From: a virus
DNA: 64,000 nucleotides
IMG/VR virus record: IMGVR_UViG_3300020055_000012
Span: 1 to 64,000 of that record
Direction: 5' to 3' (one strand)
A program made the translations under genes and the position numbers. Each line of letters opens with the position of its first letter. The stretch's first letter is position 1. This document shows, piece by piece, positions 50,526 through 55,873 of the stretch. Under the pieces are notes generated by a model that was not told where the DNA came from, searched no databases, and was given only the letters and a program-made list of their open reading frames with translations.

Positions 50526-50598
50526 CTCCTCGTAGCTTACCAAGGGAAGCCTCTGACTTTTAATCAGAAGAGAATAGGTGCAAGTCCTATCGGGGAGA
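50526..50598 (+). tRNA. tRNA-Lys(UUU)
   Basis: CTCCTCG/CGGGGAG; TCTGA-CTTTTAA-TCAGA; atypical T loop TGCAAGT. Confidence 0.82.
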
Positions 50599-50599
50599 C

Positions 50600-50683
50600 A
50601 AATTACAAAAGTTCGAAAATAAATATGGTGTTTCAGATAATGCAGTTAGAAAATGGTGTAAAAAATATAATATTTTAAAATAA
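50600..50683 (+). pseudogene. Start-less HTH-encoding gene remnant (KYGVSDNAVRKWCKKYNI)
   Basis: An open frame without a start codon between tRNA-Lys and tRNA-His; HTH-like pattern. Confidence 0.45.
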
Positions 50684-50691
50684 TAATATAT

Positions 50692-50766
50692 GGTAGGAAT
50701 AGCTCAGTTGGTTAGAGCATCGATTTGTGGTGTCGAGGGTCGTGAGTTCGAATCTCATTTCCTACC
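50692..50766 (+). tRNA. tRNA-His(GUG)
   Basis: G-1, GTAGGAA/TTCCTAC acceptor, C73; TCGAT-TTGTGGT-GTCGA. Confidence 0.9.
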
Positions 50767-50773
50767 CAATTAT

Positions 50774-50849
50774 GGTACGTTGGTCTAGTATGGTCTAGGA
50801 TGTCTGCCTGTCACGCAGAAGGTCATGGGTTCAAATCCCATACGTACCG
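50774..50849 (+). tRNA. tRNA-Asp(GUC)
   Basis: GGTACGT/ACGTACC; TCTGC-CTGTCAC-GCAGA. Confidence 0.9.
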
Positions 50850-50854
50850 CAAAA

Positions 50855-50931
50855 GACTCAGTAGCTCAGTTGGTTAGAGCATCTGACTGTTAATCAGAAT
50901 GTCGCAGGTTCGAGCCCTGCCTGAGTCGCCA
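50855..50931 (+). tRNA. tRNA-Asn(GUU)
   Basis: GACTCAG/CTGAGTC followed by GCCA; TCTGA-CTGTTAA-TCAGA. Confidence 0.92.
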
Positions 50932-50932
50932 T

Positions 50933-51007
50933 AGGAGTATAGCTCAGTTGGTTAGAAGCGCTTGCCTTACATGCAAGATGTCGGGGGTTCGAATCCCTCT
51001 ACTCCTA
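50933..51007 (+). tRNA. tRNA-Val(UAC)
   Basis: AGGAGTA/TACTCCT; CTTGC-CTTACAT-GCAAG. Confidence 0.9.
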
Positions 51008-51012
51008 CAAAT

Positions 51013-51085
51013 GGGGATGTAGCTCAGTTGGTAGAGCAATGGACTGAAAATCCATGTGTCGATGGTTCGATTCCATCCATTCCCA
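51013..51085 (+). tRNA. tRNA-Phe(GAA)
   Basis: GGGGATG/CATTCCC; ATGGA-CTGAAAA-TCCAT. Confidence 0.92.
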
Positions 51086-51088
51086 CTA

Positions 51089-51180
51089 GTGATGCTATAT
51101 GTATGTGGTACAATGTCTGCCCCAGTTGTTTAAATCTGCGGTAAAGGAGCAGAGACCGATGGAGCCACACATAGCATTAC
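51089..51180 (+). ncRNA. Unidentified structured RNA inside tRNA cluster 2
   Basis: The ends pair (GTGATGCTAT...ATAGCATTAC and TGTGG/CCACA), with an internal TCTGC/GCAGA hairpin. It is GC-rich relative to the genome. Confidence 0.45.
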
Positions 51181-51185
51181 TTTAT

Positions 51186-51259
51186 TGCGATGTAGCTCAA
51201 TTGGTTAGAGCGCAGGAATCATAACCCTGAGGCTGGGAGTTCAACTCTCTCCATCGCAA
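51186..51259 (+). tRNA. tRNA-Met(CAU), elongator-like
   Basis: TGCGATG/CATCGCA acceptor; CAGG-AATCATAAC-CCTG arm. Confidence 0.75.
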
Positions 51260-51273
51260 CAGTGTAAAATATA

Positions 51274-51342
51274 TGCGGGGAATGGTGGTCCAATGAAAGT
51301 CTCATAAGCTTACTCTGGTCAGTTCGATTCTGGCCCCCGCTA
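51274..51342 (+). tRNA. Non-canonical tRNA(CAU), initiator-like, with a shortened D arm
   Basis: T1:T72 mismatch, GCGGGG/CCCCGC acceptor, CTCATAA loop, GTCAG-TTCGATT-CTGGC T arm. Confidence 0.6.
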
Positions 51343-51349
51343 CTAAAAT

Positions 51350-51428
51350 TGCGATAATGGTGTAAGGAAGGTCTCATGAGCCTTTTTGGGAGATATCCCC
51401 CTGTCAAGTTCGAATCTTGAAATCGCAA
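51350..51428 (+). tRNA. tRNA-like RNA (CAU) lacking a D stem, with a long variable hairpin
   Basis: TGCGAT/ATCGCA; AAGGT-CTCATGA-GCCTT; GGGA-GATA-TCCC; TCAAG-TTCGAAT-CTTGA. Confidence 0.5.
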
Positions 51429-51480
51429 CAAAATTTTTAAAACTGTAAAAACTATAATATATTTATAAAAAAGATTAGGT

Positions 51481-51984
51481 ATGCAAGTATTAGTATTAAA
51501 CAACGCTTATCAGCCGATAAACGTAACAACTTTAATTAGAGGTTTTAATTTAGTATTCAAAGGTAAGGCAGAAATATTAGAGCATATAGCAGAAAAACCT
51601 ATTTTAACAGATAGAAAGAAATATAAAAGACCTACTGTAATAAGACTTTTAAGATATGTGGCTGTTCCTTTTAGAAAAGTACATTTATCAAGGCAAAACA
51701 TCTTTAGAAGAGATGATTATAAATGTATATACTGTAACAAATCAGGAGATGCCAAAAGTTTAACTTTAGACCACGTTCTTCCAAAATCTAGAGGAGGAGC
51801 AAACACTTGGATTAATCTAGTAAGTTGTTGCAGTTCTTGTAATGTTAAAAAAGGAGATAAAACACCTGAAGAAGCAGGAATGGTAATGAGTCATGAACCT
51901 TTTAAGCCAACTTATTTATATTTTGTTGAAAAATTTAAAAAAGTGCATGAGTCTTGGAATATTTATGTTGGAATAGTGCAATAA
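51481..51984 (+). CDS. HNH endonuclease (McrA-like/HNH_5)
   Basis: VLVLNNAYQP; RQNIFRRDDYKCIYC; LTLDHVLPKSRGG...WINLVSCCSSCNVKKG. Confidence 0.9.
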   Translation: MQVLVLNNAYQPINVTTLIRGFNLVFKGKAEILEHIAEKPILTDRKKYKRPTVIRLLRYVAVPFRKVHLSRQNIFRRDDYKCIYCNKSGDAKSLTLDHVLPKSRGGANTWINLVSCCSSCNVKKGDKTPEEAGMVMSHEPFKPTYLYFVEKFKKVHESWNIYVGIVQ

Positions 51985-52011
51985 AAAAAGGAGCTTAAAA
52001 AGCTCCTTTTT
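51983..52011. terminator. Bidirectional intrinsic terminator
   Basis: AAAAAGGAGCTT aaa AAGCTCCTTTTT. Confidence 0.8.
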
Positions 52012-52028
52012 ATTTTTTTAATCAACTT

Positions 52029-52250
52029 TTACTTTTTATTAGTAAAATGAAATACTGTTATTAAAGCAACTAGACCAATAAAGCCTCTTTCTCCAAATCT
52101 TGTAACAACTTCAATAATGTTGTCAATCACGCTCACTTGACCTAAGAATTGACCAAAAGCAACTTCTGCTAATACTGCCAACCCTACTAAAGTTACTAAT
52201 AACTGGCTGATACCTGATACCCAGGATTTTACTGTGTTTAAAATTTCCAT
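52029..52250 (-). CDS. Small membrane protein
   Basis: Two hydrophobic segments. Confidence 0.6.
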   Translation of the reverse strand: MEILNTVKSWVSGISQLLVTLVGLAVLAEVAFGQFLGQVSVIDNIIEVVTRFGERGFIGLVALITVFHFTNKK

Positions 52251-52289
52251 TTTGTCTCGTTTTTATTGTTTGGTTTTGTAGTTTGATGT

Positions 52290-52508
52290 TTATCCTTTAA
52301 ACATTCCTCCTACGGTTCTTAATCCTATTAAAGTACATCCTGCAATTAATGTTGGATTAAATAAGTCTTGACTTACATCATAGAATTGAAAACCATCTAA
52401 TACATAAGTCAGTCCACATAATGTTAAAAATACATTTCCCCAAAACTTTTTAGAAGAAACTTTACCATCTGTAGACTCTTTGAATAAGTCTGAAATAAAT
52501 TTTTTCAT
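52290..52508 (-). CDS. Small membrane protein (holin-like candidate)
   Basis: GKVSSKKF followed by two hydrophobic segments; close to the lysozyme gene. Confidence 0.5.
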   Translation of the reverse strand: MKKFISDLFKESTDGKVSSKKFWGNVFLTLCGLTYVLDGFQFYDVSQDLFNPTLIAGCTLIGLRTVGGMFKG

Positions 52509-52707
52509 TTTTTTAAATTTTTATAGTTATACCAAATAAATATTAGCTTTTAAATAAAATCGATTAATTATTTAAAGTAATTTTTTTACTCCGATTTATA
52601 AATAATACATGAAAATTATAAATTAAAATCACTTTTCAACAATCTTTTCTAGAGAATCTGTATAATATATTTATACCGTTTTTATGTTAAGAAGATGTAC
52701 TTTTTTG

Positions 52708-53685
52708 TTAGCTTTTTATAATGCCAGCAAGGGTTTTTAACCTATTTTTGTATGATTCAGAGACTATTTCATTACCCTTTTCTTTATTTAATAAAACAAT
52801 CATTTTATTTAAATCTTTACCAAACTTATCATATTCTACCTGTCTTCTCTTTTTTAAGCCTGGGTATTTTTTATAAGCTTTTTGGTTCATTTTTAAAATT
52901 TCATCTTGAGCTTCTAGATATTTTCCTTGCTTTATTAATTCCACAAAATCAGACCTTCTAAAAGCTCCTCTACCTCTATTATATGCTATAGAAACCATCG
53001 CATCATACATGTTTTGGTCTATTTTGTATATAACACCTTCATCGTCCCACTCTCTTAATTCATCATTTACAGCTTTTTCAGCAGTAGCAACATCTTGTCT
53101 TAAAAGTTCTTCTGCTTCTGATTTGCTTATTTCTTGACCTACTTTATATTTTGAATCTTTTATATCTTCTGCATGACCCCAACCAATAGTTATTTTGCCA
53201 TCTCCTATTTGGTATCCATCGCTTCTATATCCTTCTTCTTTTTTTAGAAAATCATATAACCAACTTGAAGATGAGTCTGGGGTTTCTATTATTTCAATTT
53301 CTTTTTCTATTTCTTCTTCTGGTTCTACATCTACTTTAGGAAATGATGAAGAAAGTGATATTTCATCTTTTATTTCTGGTGACTCTTGATTTATTACGTT
53401 TGAAATTGCAGAAGCTGCAGTAAATCCTAATAGTATAGATATTACATATCTAGCCAATTTTACTTTTAAATTTTTTGATAGGTATTTTATTTTTCTTAAA
53501 AAAACTTTTAAATATTCTTCTGCTTGAGTTGGGGTTTTTATATTTTCTGTTGATTTATTTAACTTTTCTTTTGTTAAGTCCCACACGAAATTTCTATCAT
53601 CAATTTGTTCAATTTCAGATATGACCGAAATAGCTTCACTTATATAAAAATCTATTTCGTTTAATATTTCTTCTTTTAATATCAT
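52708..53685 (-). CDS. GH24 phage lysozyme-domain protein with an N-terminal extension
   Basis: EEG...Y...DGKITIGWGH; QNMYDAMVSIAYNRG; PGLKKRRQVE; probable start MILKEEILNE. Confidence 0.8.
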   Translation of the reverse strand: MILKEEILNEIDFYISEAISVISEIEQIDDRNFVWDLTKEKLNKSTENIKTPTQAEEYLKVFLRKIKYLSKNLKVKLARYVISILLGFTAASAISNVINQESPEIKDEISLSSSFPKVDVEPEEEIEKEIEIIETPDSSSSWLYDFLKKEEGYRSDGYQIGDGKITIGWGHAEDIKDSKYKVGQEISKSEAEELLRQDVATAEKAVNDELREWDDEGVIYKIDQNMYDAMVSIAYNRGRGAFRRSDFVELIKQGKYLEAQDEILKMNQKAYKKYPGLKKRRQVEYDKFGKDLNKMIVLLNKEKGNEIVSESYKNRLKTLAGIIKS

Positions 53686-53928
53686 TATAATATATAATAT
53701 AAAAATAAGACTGCCCATAGTAGCGAGCTTTGAGCAGTCTCTGCAACCGAAGTTACAACGGTCCTAAACCGAATCTTAAATACCTTGCTCGTTAAACCAG
53801 TTATAGTCATCAAAGACTTCTTCTTCTTTTTCTTTGTCTTTTTTCACTTTAAAAATATATAAATTAAAATTAGTTACTTGTTTTTCAAAAACCACCTTGT
53901 ATACCATACATATCCTCTAGTTCTCTCT

Positions 53929-54360
53929 TTATAAATAATCAAATTCAATTTCTATTGTTTTGCGACTTCCATCTATTGTAACTGTAGTAGGAAAAATATG
54001 GCCAGTATCTGCTGTTTTTGTAATTTCCAATTTAAAATCTTCAATACTACCTCCATCAAAAACGTACAAATCATTAAACTCTTTTCTAATTTCTTCAGTT
54101 TCACCAGAATCTTCTCTGTATATATTAATATCTAATATTAATTTTTTTATTTTTATTGAGTCTGACTTAATTCCCCAACTTCTCTTTTCAAAATCTATAT
54201 CCCAGTGAATTTCAGCATAGCTTTTATCAAAAGAATCATCACCACCAATCATATCATTAAATCCATAAACATCTAAAGAAACCTCTTTTGTAATGTAAGG
54301 AACTTCACTAGATTCGCTTAAGGATTCTCTAATTAATTTTCTTAATTCTTTTTGTTTCAT
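53929..54360 (-). CDS. Hypothetical protein with a MKQKELRKLIRESLSE N-terminus
   Basis: ORF track. Confidence 0.55.
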   Translation of the reverse strand: MKQKELRKLIRESLSESSEVPYITKEVSLDVYGFNDMIGGDDSFDKSYAEIHWDIDFEKRSWGIKSDSIKIKKLILDINIYREDSGETEEIRKEFNDLYVFDGGSIEDFKLEITKTADTGHIFPTTVTIDGSRKTIEIEFDYL

Positions 54361-54452
54361 ACAAATAAATATTGTATTTTTTTGTAACTTTTGTATATTT
54401 GTATCGTTATATTTCTGAAATTAAAAATTTATTTATATTTAAGATATACATA

Positions 54453-54563
54453 ATGAAAAATTTAAAAACATATCGCAATATTGAACCGACCATTACAGGA
54501 ACTTGTCCTGCGTATGGCTGGAATAATACGGGTGTGTTTAATGATAGATTATATATGAAATAA
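54453..54563 (+). CDS. Putative attenuator leader peptide 3 (MKNLKTYRNIEPTITGTCPAYGWNNTGVFNDRLYMK)
   Basis: ATG at 54453. It contains all nine amino acids served by the downstream tRNAs and is followed by a terminator. Confidence 0.8.
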   Translation: MKNLKTYRNIEPTITGTCPAYGWNNTGVFNDRLYMK

Positions 54564-54587
54564 AATAATATTAAAATCAAAATACAC

Positions 54588-54617
54588 ACCCGGACCCAAA
54601 AAGGTTCGGGTTTTTTT
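54588..54617 (+). terminator. Attenuator terminator upstream of tRNA cluster 3
   Basis: ACCCGGACC caaaaa GGTTCGGGT TTTTTT, 12 nt before tRNA-Ala. Confidence 0.85.
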
Positions 54618-54629
54618 ATGCTTAAATTT

Positions 54630-54706
54630 GGGGAATTAGCTCAGCTGGCTAGAGCACTTGATTTGCATTCAAGAGGTCATCGGTTCGACTCCGTTATTCT
54701 CCACCA
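54630..54706 (+). tRNA. tRNA-Ala(UGC)
   Basis: GGGGAAT/ATTCTCC with G3:U70; CTTGA-TTTGCAT-TCAAG; CCA encoded. Confidence 0.92.
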
Positions 54707-54708
54707 AA

Positions 54709-54791
54709 GGAAGTGTTGAGCAATTGGTTGGCTCGCCTGTCTGTAAAACAGGTTCTTTTTAGACTTGAAGGTTCGAATCCTTCCACTTCCA
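54709..54791 (+). tRNA. tRNA-Tyr(GUA)
   Basis: GGAAGTG/CACTTCC; CCTGT-CTGTAAA-ACAGG; long variable region. Confidence 0.9.
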
Positions 54792-54797
54792 CAAAAA

Positions 54798-54869
54798 GCA
54801 AGATGTAGCTTAACTGGTAAAGCATCTGCCTTCCAAGCAGAGGACGGAGTTCGAATCTCACATCTTGCT
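54798..54869 (+). tRNA. tRNA-Gly(UCC), with an apparently 8-bp acceptor stem
   Basis: GCAAGATG/CATCTTGC; TCTGC-CTTCCAA-GCAGA; U73. Confidence 0.8.
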
Positions 54870-54951
54870 CTCTAGAGTAGTTTGCTGATTTAAGGTCTTA
54901 TAATCAGACGGGATGGTCACCTCTGTTTGAAGTGCAGTTAATAACCGTAAT

Positions 54952-55024
54952 ACGTCTGTAGTTCAATTGGTAGAATGACGGTCTCCAAAACCGTTGGTTG
55001 TAAGTTCGAATCTTACCAGACGTG
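54952..55024 (+). tRNA. tRNA-Trp(CCA)
   Basis: ACGTCTG/CAGACGT; ACGGT-CTCCAAA-ACCGT. Confidence 0.92.
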
Positions 55025-55030
55025 CAAATT

Positions 55031-55103
55031 CGGGGTGTGGCGCAGTTGGTAGCGCGGGGCGTTTGGGACGCTCAGGTCGTCAGTTCGAGTCTGGCTACCC
55101 CGA
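55031..55103 (+). tRNA. tRNA-Pro(UGG)
   Basis: CGGGGTG/TACCCCG; GGGCG-TTTGGGA-CGCTC. Confidence 0.92.
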
Positions 55104-55108
55104 CATAT

Positions 55109-55182
55109 ACGCCTATAGCTCAGCTGGTTAGAGCATTTGACTGATACTCAAAAGGTCAGTGGTTCAAATCCACTTAGGCGTA
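55109..55182 (+). tRNA. tRNA-Ile(GAU)
   Basis: ACGCCTA/TAGGCGT; TTTGA-CTGATAC-TCAAA. Confidence 0.9.
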
Positions 55183-55191
55183 CAAATAAAT

Positions 55192-55265
55192 GCTCCTATA
55201 GCTCAATTGAATAGAGCGCCAAACTACGGATTTGGAGGTTGAAAGTTTGAATCTTTCTGGGAGTA
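55192..55265 (+). tRNA. tRNA-Arg(ACG)
   Basis: GCTCCTA/TGGGAGT; CCAAA-CTACGGA-TTTGG. Confidence 0.88.
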
Positions 55266-55276
55266 CATATAATAAT

Positions 55277-55351
55277 GCCTCATTAGCTCAGATGGCTGAG
55301 AGCGACTGATTTGTACTCAGTAGGTCGGGGGTTCGAGTCCCTCATGAGGCT
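55277..55351 (+). tRNA. tRNA-Thr(UGU)
   Basis: GCCTCAT/ATGAGGC; ACTGA-TTTGTAC-TCAGT. Confidence 0.92.
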
Positions 55352-55360
55352 CTAAAATAT

Positions 55361-55435
55361 GGGCATATGACCGAGTGGTTTAGGTGCTGGATTGCAAACC
55401 CAGATACGCTAGTTCAAATCTAGCTATGCCCTCCA
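55361..55435 (+). tRNA. tRNA-Cys(GCA)
   Basis: GGGCATA/TATGCCC followed by TCCA; GCA anticodon; U73. Confidence 0.9.
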
Positions 55436-55436
55436 G

Positions 55437-55466
55437 AACTCCAATGATAAAAAGTTGGAGTTTTTT
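55437..55466 (+). terminator. Terminator closing tRNA cluster 3
   Basis: AACTCCAA...TTGGAGTT followed by a T tract. Confidence 0.7.
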
Positions 55467-55501
55467 GTTTATATTTGTAATATTATTATTACATTTACTT
55501 T

Positions 55502-55873
55502 ATGGGAACTGAATATGTTTTAGTTAGGGATGATAACAAGGAAATGTATGACCTTAGTAAGAATCCGCAAGGAATCGGAACTTGGTATGAAATGGAAAAT
55601 GCTTTTGATTCTAAAAGTGTATTGCTTGATGCACTTCCTAGTTGGGGTCATGTAAATAAATTCGTTATTAGTGATTTAGACTACCTAAAGGAATACATGC
55701 TTGAAGGTAGTGATTCTGATATATTAGAATACTGGAAAAATACTCTTGAAGATATATATGATTGGTCTGATGAAAAAGAGGTGTATATAGTATTTGAAGA
55801 GGTTGAATTCCAACTTAAAGACAAAGGATATAAAACAACAAGAAGTAGATTTAAAAAAAATAATAATGGGTAA
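55502..55873 (+). CDS. Hypothetical protein
   Basis: ORF track; TATATTTG box at 55470. Confidence 0.55.
   Translation: MGTEYVLVRDDNKEMYDLSKNPQGIGTWYEMENAFDSKSVLLDALPSWGHVNKFVISDLDYLKEYMLEGSDSDILEYWKNTLEDIYDWSDEKEVYIVFEEVEFQLKDKGYKTTRSRFKKNNNG

Follow-up and report, generated by a model that had tools for sequence, protein, structure and literature searches.

A leader open reading frame matched to nine downstream tRNAs: a putative ribosome-mediated attenuator in an uncultured phage

The stretch of DNA analysed here (the window) is the first 64 kb (positions 1 to 64,000) of IMG/VR virus record IMGVR_UViG_3300020055_000012, a single 79,404-bp contig (30% G+C) of an uncultured phage. Near-identical DNA was present in salt-marsh metagenomes; in cultured-phage databases no close relative was found, the DNA matches being limited to tRNAs and helicase identity not exceeding 31%. 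A total of 20 tRNA genes, arranged in three clusters, was recognised in the genome by ARAGORN and Rfam, and none of those called was specific for Leu, Glu, or Gln. The element described here is a short leader open reading frame (ORF), followed by an intrinsic terminator, that precedes the third cluster (array 3). From the upstream to the downstream end, the locus was characterized by the following features:

54394-54441, plus strand: candidate promoter region with two Bacteroidota-type -7-like boxes, proposed from the sequence
54394-54401, plus strand: -7-like box TATATTTG
54434-54441, plus strand: -7-like box TATATTTA, 11 nt before the ATG
54453-54563, plus strand: leader ORF of 36 codons and a TAA stop (ATG at 54453; stop at 54561-54563)
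54467-54475, plus strand: segment 1 (codons 5-8), candidate anti-antiterminator, tentatively placed from the full-length minimum-energy fold
54468-54521, plus strand: putative sensor codons 6-23, delimited by composition and by codon match to array 3
54529-54537, plus strand: segment 2, 5' arm of the antiterminator, CGGGTGTGT, inside codons 26-28
54584-54592, plus strand: segment 3, 3' arm of the antiterminator, ACACACCCG
54588-54617, plus strand: intrinsic terminator with a 9-bp stem (54588-54611), a 6-nt loop and seven T
54630-55435, plus strand: array 3, in which ARAGORN and Rfam agree on exactly nine tRNAs
54871-54951, plus strand: 81-nt non-tRNA spacer within array 3, between tRNA-Gly and tRNA-Trp, containing a hairpin
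55435 to 55464-55470, plus strand: terminator closing the array-3 tRNA operon

The tRNAs of array 3 follow one another in the order Ala-TGC, Tyr-GTA, Gly-TCC, Trp-CCA, Pro-TGG, Ile-GAT, Arg-ACG, Thr-TGT, and Cys-GCA. An earlier note, drawn up from the letters of the window alone, had stated that 16 of the 18 residues in codons 6-23 of the leader belong to the set {A, Y, G, W, P, I, R, T, C}, and that these are exactly the residues served by the tRNAs behind it. Both statements were confirmed: all nine types occur in codons 6-23, with Asn9 and Glu11 as the exceptions, and the set is identical to the nine specificities called by ARAGORN and Rfam. The probability of such a composition was computed from background amino-acid frequencies, in which the nine-residue set accounts for 39%, and random 35-mers combined 16 of 18 residues with all nine types at P 1.3e-5. 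Moreover, among 55,873 stop-free windows of 18 residues, taken in six frames from the whole genome, the leader alone exhibited at least 16 residues of the set together with all nine types. Neither the leader ORF nor the ORFs flanking it matched a Pfam or PHROG family.

As the note had said, the leader uses all four Thr codons, ACG occurring beyond codons 6-23, at codon 26. The GC-rich codons described as uncommon in this genome are indeed rare: CGC represents 1 of the 669 Arg codons in long ORFs, and the corresponding fractions were 0.03 for CCG and GCG, 0.05 for ACC, 0.09 for GGC, and 0.02 for ACG. Taken together, the sensor codons favoured rare synonyms (P about 1e-4). Twelve of its 18 codons can be read by array-3 anticodons under standard wobble (background 19.5%; P 1.7e-5), versus none by the tRNAs of array 1 and a single one by those of array 2. 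These two arrays are preceded by attenuators of their own:

47590-47722, plus strand: sister attenuator 1, with RNA arms unrelated to those of attenuator 3; precedes tRNA-Ile-TAT, then Arg-TCT and Met
49369-49550, plus strand: sister attenuator 2, a paralogue of attenuator 3; precedes two ORFs, then array 2

Leader 1 has 24 codons and is rich in ATA and AGA/AGG; leader 2 contains codons for Ser, Lys, His, Asp, Asn, Val, Phe, and Met. Attenuator 2 shares the arms GGGTGTG and ACACACCCG with attenuator 3, and its 20-nt 3' end is identical. Within this genome, leaders 1 and 2 were each enriched only in codons read by their own array. The agreement extended to isoacceptors, with ATT and CGC in leader 3 and Ile-GAT and Arg-ACG in its array, and ATA and AGA/AGG in leader 1 and Ile-TAT and Arg-TCT in its array. 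Since each leader matches its own array only, a genome-wide codon bias cannot yield this pattern. The remark in the earlier note that the leader seems to sample host isoacceptors is speculation; what can be demonstrated is that rare codons are preferred, as are the codon boxes of the array isoacceptors.

No general colinearity was found between leader order and tRNA order, the longest common subsequences of the 11 leader types described below summing to 55, versus 58 in shuffled data. In leader 3, the last four sensor residues (54510-54521; Ala, Tyr, Gly, Trp) were observed in the order of the first four tRNAs of the array (54630-55025; nominal P 0.002), and colinearity of this kind was absent from the other ten leader types (one positive among 11 tests).

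The long-range pairing proposed earlier was also found in the RNA: CGGGTGTGT of segment 2 pairs over 9 bp with ACACACCCG of segment 3, and this helix overlaps the terminator stem, the last five bases of segment 3 being the first five of the terminator 5' arm. The GGGTGTG of segment 2 is common to attenuator 2 and to the family members presented below. When segment 2 was left free, the minimum-energy fold of this element contained the 2:3 helix (about -17 to -18 kcal/mol) in place of the terminator (-15.2 kcal/mol); the same exchange was seen in 16 of 18 distinct relatives. In the full-length fold, 54467-54475 paired with segment 2 and the terminator formed. When the RNA was masked as for a ribosome stalled at early sensor codons, the 2:3 helix was retained; when it was masked around the stop codon, the terminator was obtained. 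The leader RNA folded better than all of 200 shuffles (z -3.3). In the terminator stem, 96.6% of the cells were paired across 23 distinct relatives and four of the nine pairs had changed on both sides, with a covariation score of 0.30 versus 0.15 in shuffles (none of the 500 as high); the outer four pairs are uninformative in this respect, because they are fixed by the search pattern.

Relatives of the element were searched for with patterns that described the RNA arms and the start of the T-run only, the ORF and the tRNAs being left unspecified. A large share of the matches lay directly 5' of tRNA arrays, in dozens of phage contigs. The matches came from IMG/VR phage contigs, from metagenome contigs, and from contigs binned with metagenome-assembled genomes (MAGs) of Bacteroidia/Bacteroidota; further loci were obtained from phages related by their helicase (47-87% identity). 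A looser IMG/VR pattern, made of the antiterminator arms alone, added only chance matches among the matches listed. Overall, at least nine leader types with mutually unrelated peptides were distinguished, plus two with different arms, namely leader 1 and a Lys type.

Across these 11 leader types, every non-Met specificity of an array was found in its own leader (77 out of 77), and leader/array enrichment over the whole peptides gave a Fisher-combined P of 2e-14. No re-pairing of leaders with arrays scored as well as the real pairing, whether among 362,880 for nine types or among 500,000 sampled for all eleven. For Ser, Arg, and Leu, 30 of 38 leader codons belonged to the box read by the array isoacceptor (24.6 expected). 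For example, one leader type rich in His, Gln, Pro, Arg, Ala, and Ser precedes exactly those tRNAs, and all 16 specificities of a 23-tRNA array are represented in the leader of relative L192. The leader ORF was open in every member, with its stop 20-32 nt past the first G of segment 2. In most leader types, ORF positions of about +12 to +20, where segment 1 lies in this element, carried a CAYAU-like motif.

The Lys type belongs to an unrelated family, in which five alternating AAA/AAG codons precede arrays made of Lys-TTT and Lys-CTT tRNAs only (four Lys-TTT and one Lys-CTT). These codons lie inside a conserved 8-bp long-range helix and the terminator is different; no obvious antiterminator was seen on folding. 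The type was found at three loci:

L017, 1265-1400: Lys-type attenuator
L019, 12481-12600: Lys-type attenuator
L184, 6062-6190: Lys-type attenuator

The proposal, made in the earlier note, that the locus is an attenuator is supported by the family, which provided the decisive comparison: among relatives retrieved solely by their RNA arms, different tRNA sets are preceded by correspondingly different leader peptides.

A TATATTTA box was observed 9-11 nt 5' of the ATG in leaders 1 and 3, as well as in relatives L164, L177, L014, and L021. The T-run of the terminator ends 12 nt before tRNA-Ala, and the suggestion that this leaves no room for a separate promoter was borne out; the interval contains a single -7-like box (54622-54629), which would place the transcription start inside tRNA-Ala. 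One whole contig of a marine metatranscriptome corresponds to 54455-54632 and runs unbroken through the leader and the terminator to the 5' end of tRNA-Ala. A second contig of the same run corresponds to 47599-47830 and covers leader 1 with its terminator, ending at the 3' end of tRNA-Ile. RNA contigs of two studies share a start at 54455. Uncovered stretches, depth figures, and most joints were left out of the RNA mapping, on account of tRNAs from other organisms. The RNA contigs are consistent with a transcription start just 5' of the ATG, behind the TATATTTA box, and with read-through transcripts that are subsequently cut at tRNA ends.

Leaderless tRNA sub-clusters (47876-47890 in the window; loci L023, L027, and L037) carried a promoter element of the Bacteroidota -7 type on their 5' side, in the form of a TAnnTTTG box and then TCGTTA. 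Together with the presence of the family on contigs of Bacteroidia MAGs, this element points to a Bacteroidota host.

Taken as sequence evidence, these features make it probable that the element is a ribosome-mediated (leader-peptide) transcription attenuator that regulates tRNA genes. Of the characteristic parts of such attenuators, four are present, namely a short ORF, cognate codons, an intrinsic terminator, and a mutually exclusive antiterminator. Classical attenuators act on genes of biosynthesis enzymes or synthetases, whereas the regulated genes here would be nine tRNAs; this is the point of novelty, and not a flaw in the mechanism. We infer that the leader is translated, that transcription and translation are coupled, that the response runs in the direction set out below, and that tRNA rather than amino-acid supply matters in vivo.

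In the proposed mechanism, transcription would start just 5' of the ATG at 54453 and a ribosome would translate the 36-codon leader, with codons 6-23 sampling each of the nine tRNA specificities, mostly via codons that are rare in the phage. If all codons were decoded fast, the ribosome would cross segment 2 (54529-54537) toward the stop at 54561 while segments 3 and 4 are being made by the polymerase. With segment 2 unavailable, the terminator hairpin (54588-54611) would form and transcription would stop at the T-run, 12 nt before tRNA-Ala. If any of the sampled aminoacyl-tRNAs were scarce, the ribosome would stall 5' of segment 2, so that segments 2 and 3 could pair, no terminator would form, and the polymerase would enter the nine-tRNA array. 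The new tRNAs would then relieve the stall, closing a negative feedback loop on tRNA supply. Rare codons and isoacceptor-specific boxes argue for a design tuned to tRNA rather than to amino-acid supply.

A broader reading, which we hold with somewhat less assurance but still favour, is that phage tRNA arrays are self-correcting homeostats, in which a multivalent leader tests decodability and a terminator opens only when one tRNA is limiting; this would be the first ribosome-mediated attenuation of tRNA genes, and a widespread one. If the homeostat reading is true, its wide occurrence follows from the fact that unrelated arms and peptides obey one rule in the clade. As a further possibility, such a switch might help phages to withstand the anticodon nucleases that hosts use for defence, cleaved tRNAs being replaced as needed.

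Several observations weigh against attenuation by the leader. Six of the 18 sensor codons (AAT, GAA, ACC, ACT, CCT, GGC) cannot be read by array-3 tRNAs under standard wobble, and in relatives L164 and L177 an AAG codon is present although the array lacks Lys-CTT. With just one to four codons sampling each tRNA, the sensitivity of the device is uncertain. Among close relatives, 31 of 50 substitutions stayed in the residue set, versus 24.6 expected, which is marginal (P 0.047). The 1:2 pairing of this element is weak, with a duplex energy no better than that of shuffles, and the same comparison was not significant in most family members; segment 1 is therefore kept as a tentative assignment. 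A ribosome positioned at the stop codon leaves segment 2 physically uncovered, so termination must depend on timing and steric hindrance. Transcription-translation coupling in the host is assumed. Finally, the RNA data consist of assembled contigs of RNA libraries, from which transcript ends, strand, and the absence of DNA cannot be proved.

Four other explanations were weighed against attenuation by tRNA supply. The attenuator might sense general translation stress or amino-acid starvation, in which case the match with the array would reflect coverage of many amino acids, without tRNA feedback. Stalling at a codon looks the same whether the amino acid or its tRNA is lacking, and the trn operon of Anabaena, the sole published tRNA array that responds to the translation state, is induced by general translational stress. 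We nevertheless consider this explanation unlikely: leaders of the same genome differ, and each fits its own array down to the isoacceptor box (ATT/CGC versus ATA/AGA), which a stress sensor would not need. Moreover, extra tRNA is no cure for amino-acid starvation.

It also appears quite unlikely that the logic is reversed, with stalling masking segment 2 and causing termination, or that leader translation controls another step, such as processing, RNA stability, or Rho access. The majority of the sensor codons are located over 12 nt 5' of segment 2, although a ribosome stalled at the last of them (Gly22, Trp23) would extend into it. The weak 1:2 helix of this element may allow an untranslated transcript to default to read-through, but the corresponding helices of sister elements 1 and 2 are long and stable. 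The conserved overlap of the antiterminator with a covarying intrinsic terminator is the hallmark of classical attenuation.

That the ORF is no sensor at all, lying beside a constitutive leaky terminator or a processing signal with a composition due to coincidence or to codon bias, is very unlikely. Short ORFs are frequent in AT-rich DNA and the leader has no protein-family match; against this stand the uniqueness of the sensor window in the genome, the within-genome specificity that excludes a genome-wide bias, the family-wide match that none of the 500,000 re-pairings equalled, and the conservation of the ORF and its stop position. Hardly credible is a functional small peptide, acting for instance on tRNA maturation or on the host and merely sharing a promoter region with the array, since, even though close relatives have kept the peptide sequence, the different types have the RNA arms and the composition rule in common but show no sequence relationship between their peptides, the conserved Gly-Val coincides with RNA segment 2 and Thr-Tyr/His with segment 1, and no known peptide family was matched.

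In a full-text search of the literature, no account of leader-peptide attenuation of tRNA genes was found. Rfam gave no cis-regulatory match in 54440-54620 at E up to 1, the T-box included, and no match to its leader families (His, Thr, Leu, Trp, Phe, and similar); over 47400-55600 it returned tRNAs and sub-threshold chance matches only. The nearest counterparts are the leader-peptide attenuators of enterobacterial amino-acid operons, either multivalent, such as thr (Thr/Ile) and ilvGMEDA (Ile/Val/Leu), or responsive to a single amino acid, such as trpL, hisL, leuL, and pheL. The phage element resembles them in its short leader with regulatory codons, in the intrinsic terminator that precedes the genes, and in the exclusive antiterminator with a 5' arm at the end of the ORF; the use of rare codons as sensors recalls the leu leader. 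In contrast to the enterobacterial leaders, with which it has no sequence or Rfam relationship, it is carried by a phage and targets tRNA genes instead of biosynthetic enzymes, so its output would feed back directly on the quantity sensed. Its valency is also different, with nine specificities here and up to 16 in L192, each represented by one to four codons and not by runs.

Attenuation that acts on a component of the translation machinery, as proposed here, is exemplified by the pheST operon of E. coli, in which phenylalanyl-tRNA synthetase is controlled by leader-peptide attenuation (pheM leader); that system, unlike the phage element, involves a synthetase gene and a single-amino-acid sensor. 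The T-box riboswitch similarly uses a terminator/antiterminator switch that answers tRNA status. However, its ligand is uncharged tRNA, which it recognises directly by means of a specifier codon and the T-box sequence, and no translation is involved, whereas the phage element has an ORF in place of Stem I. In Anabaena sp. PCC 7120, the trn array, the closest published case among tRNA genes, is a supernumerary set of tRNA genes on a megaplasmid that is off until translation is impaired, and the paper describing it mentions neither attenuation nor a leader or terminator (PMC8421152). Control of trn is exerted by the protein repressor TrcR, which binds direct repeats at the promoter (PMC10272220). 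The phage array would resemble trn in staying silent until translation is disturbed, and would differ from it in the means, trn being under promoter repressor control and located on a bacterial megaplasmid.

Why phages carry tRNA genes and when these are used is an open question, and to our knowledge the regulation of phage tRNA genes is almost unstudied. We know of no amino-acid operon in which a single leader has a valency of 9 to 16 specificities. If the attenuator reading is true, translation itself would act as the sensor of tRNA supply, with correction through transcription read-through, and textbook attenuation would be extended to a new class of targets, with 9 to 16 specificities per leader. 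The leader would then also be a natural reporter, showing which codons count for the phage as potentially limiting in the host. Moreover, promoter, leader, and switch would form a compact, modular part for synthetic biology, the specificity of which could be set by rewriting codons.

Other observations concern the tRNA clusters and their surroundings. In array 3, a hidden tRNA in the 54871-54951 spacer was considered as an explanation for Asn9 or Glu11 and rejected, ARAGORN and Rfam calling none there. In L164 and L177, this spacer was identical except for its first few bases; in L014, its place was taken by an unrelated sequence.

At the first cluster, leader 1, its terminator, and tRNA-Ile-TAT were jointly missing in relatives L023, L037, and L039, a distribution showing that leader-1 module and tRNA are gained and lost as one. 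In the Pfam and PHROG searches of the leaders and their flanking ORFs, the sole signal was a weak Pfam match, below threshold, of leader 1 (47590-47661) to ArgL-like leader peptides (E 0.089), which probably reflects just its Arg/Ile-rich run. The tRNA-Arg-TCT gene (47926-48209), as called by ARAGORN with introns, exhibited a 207-nt insert in the anticodon loop, with no Rfam group I intron match at E up to 1; the insert was absent from the tRNA-Arg-TCT of L023 and L037. One RNA contig joins 47960 to 48168 and skips these 207 nt, and could represent either a spliced or an intron-less form of tRNA-Arg-TCT.

Between the two ORFs 3' of attenuator 2, a tRNA-like structure (50114-50199) gave a sub-threshold tRNA-Sec match (30 bits versus a cut-off of 47) and was conserved in L012, L176, and L178. 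Inside and after the second tRNA cluster, two further stretches (51087-51185 and 51262-51430) looked tRNA-like by eye, with CAT-type anticodon loops, and were called as tRNAs by neither ARAGORN nor Rfam. Finally, in L025 (2896-4010) and L026 (12083-13890), the interval between the helicase gene and the tRNAs was occupied by three to six tandem ORFs of about 80 codons, which share a conserved GWRLPTKDEL motif.

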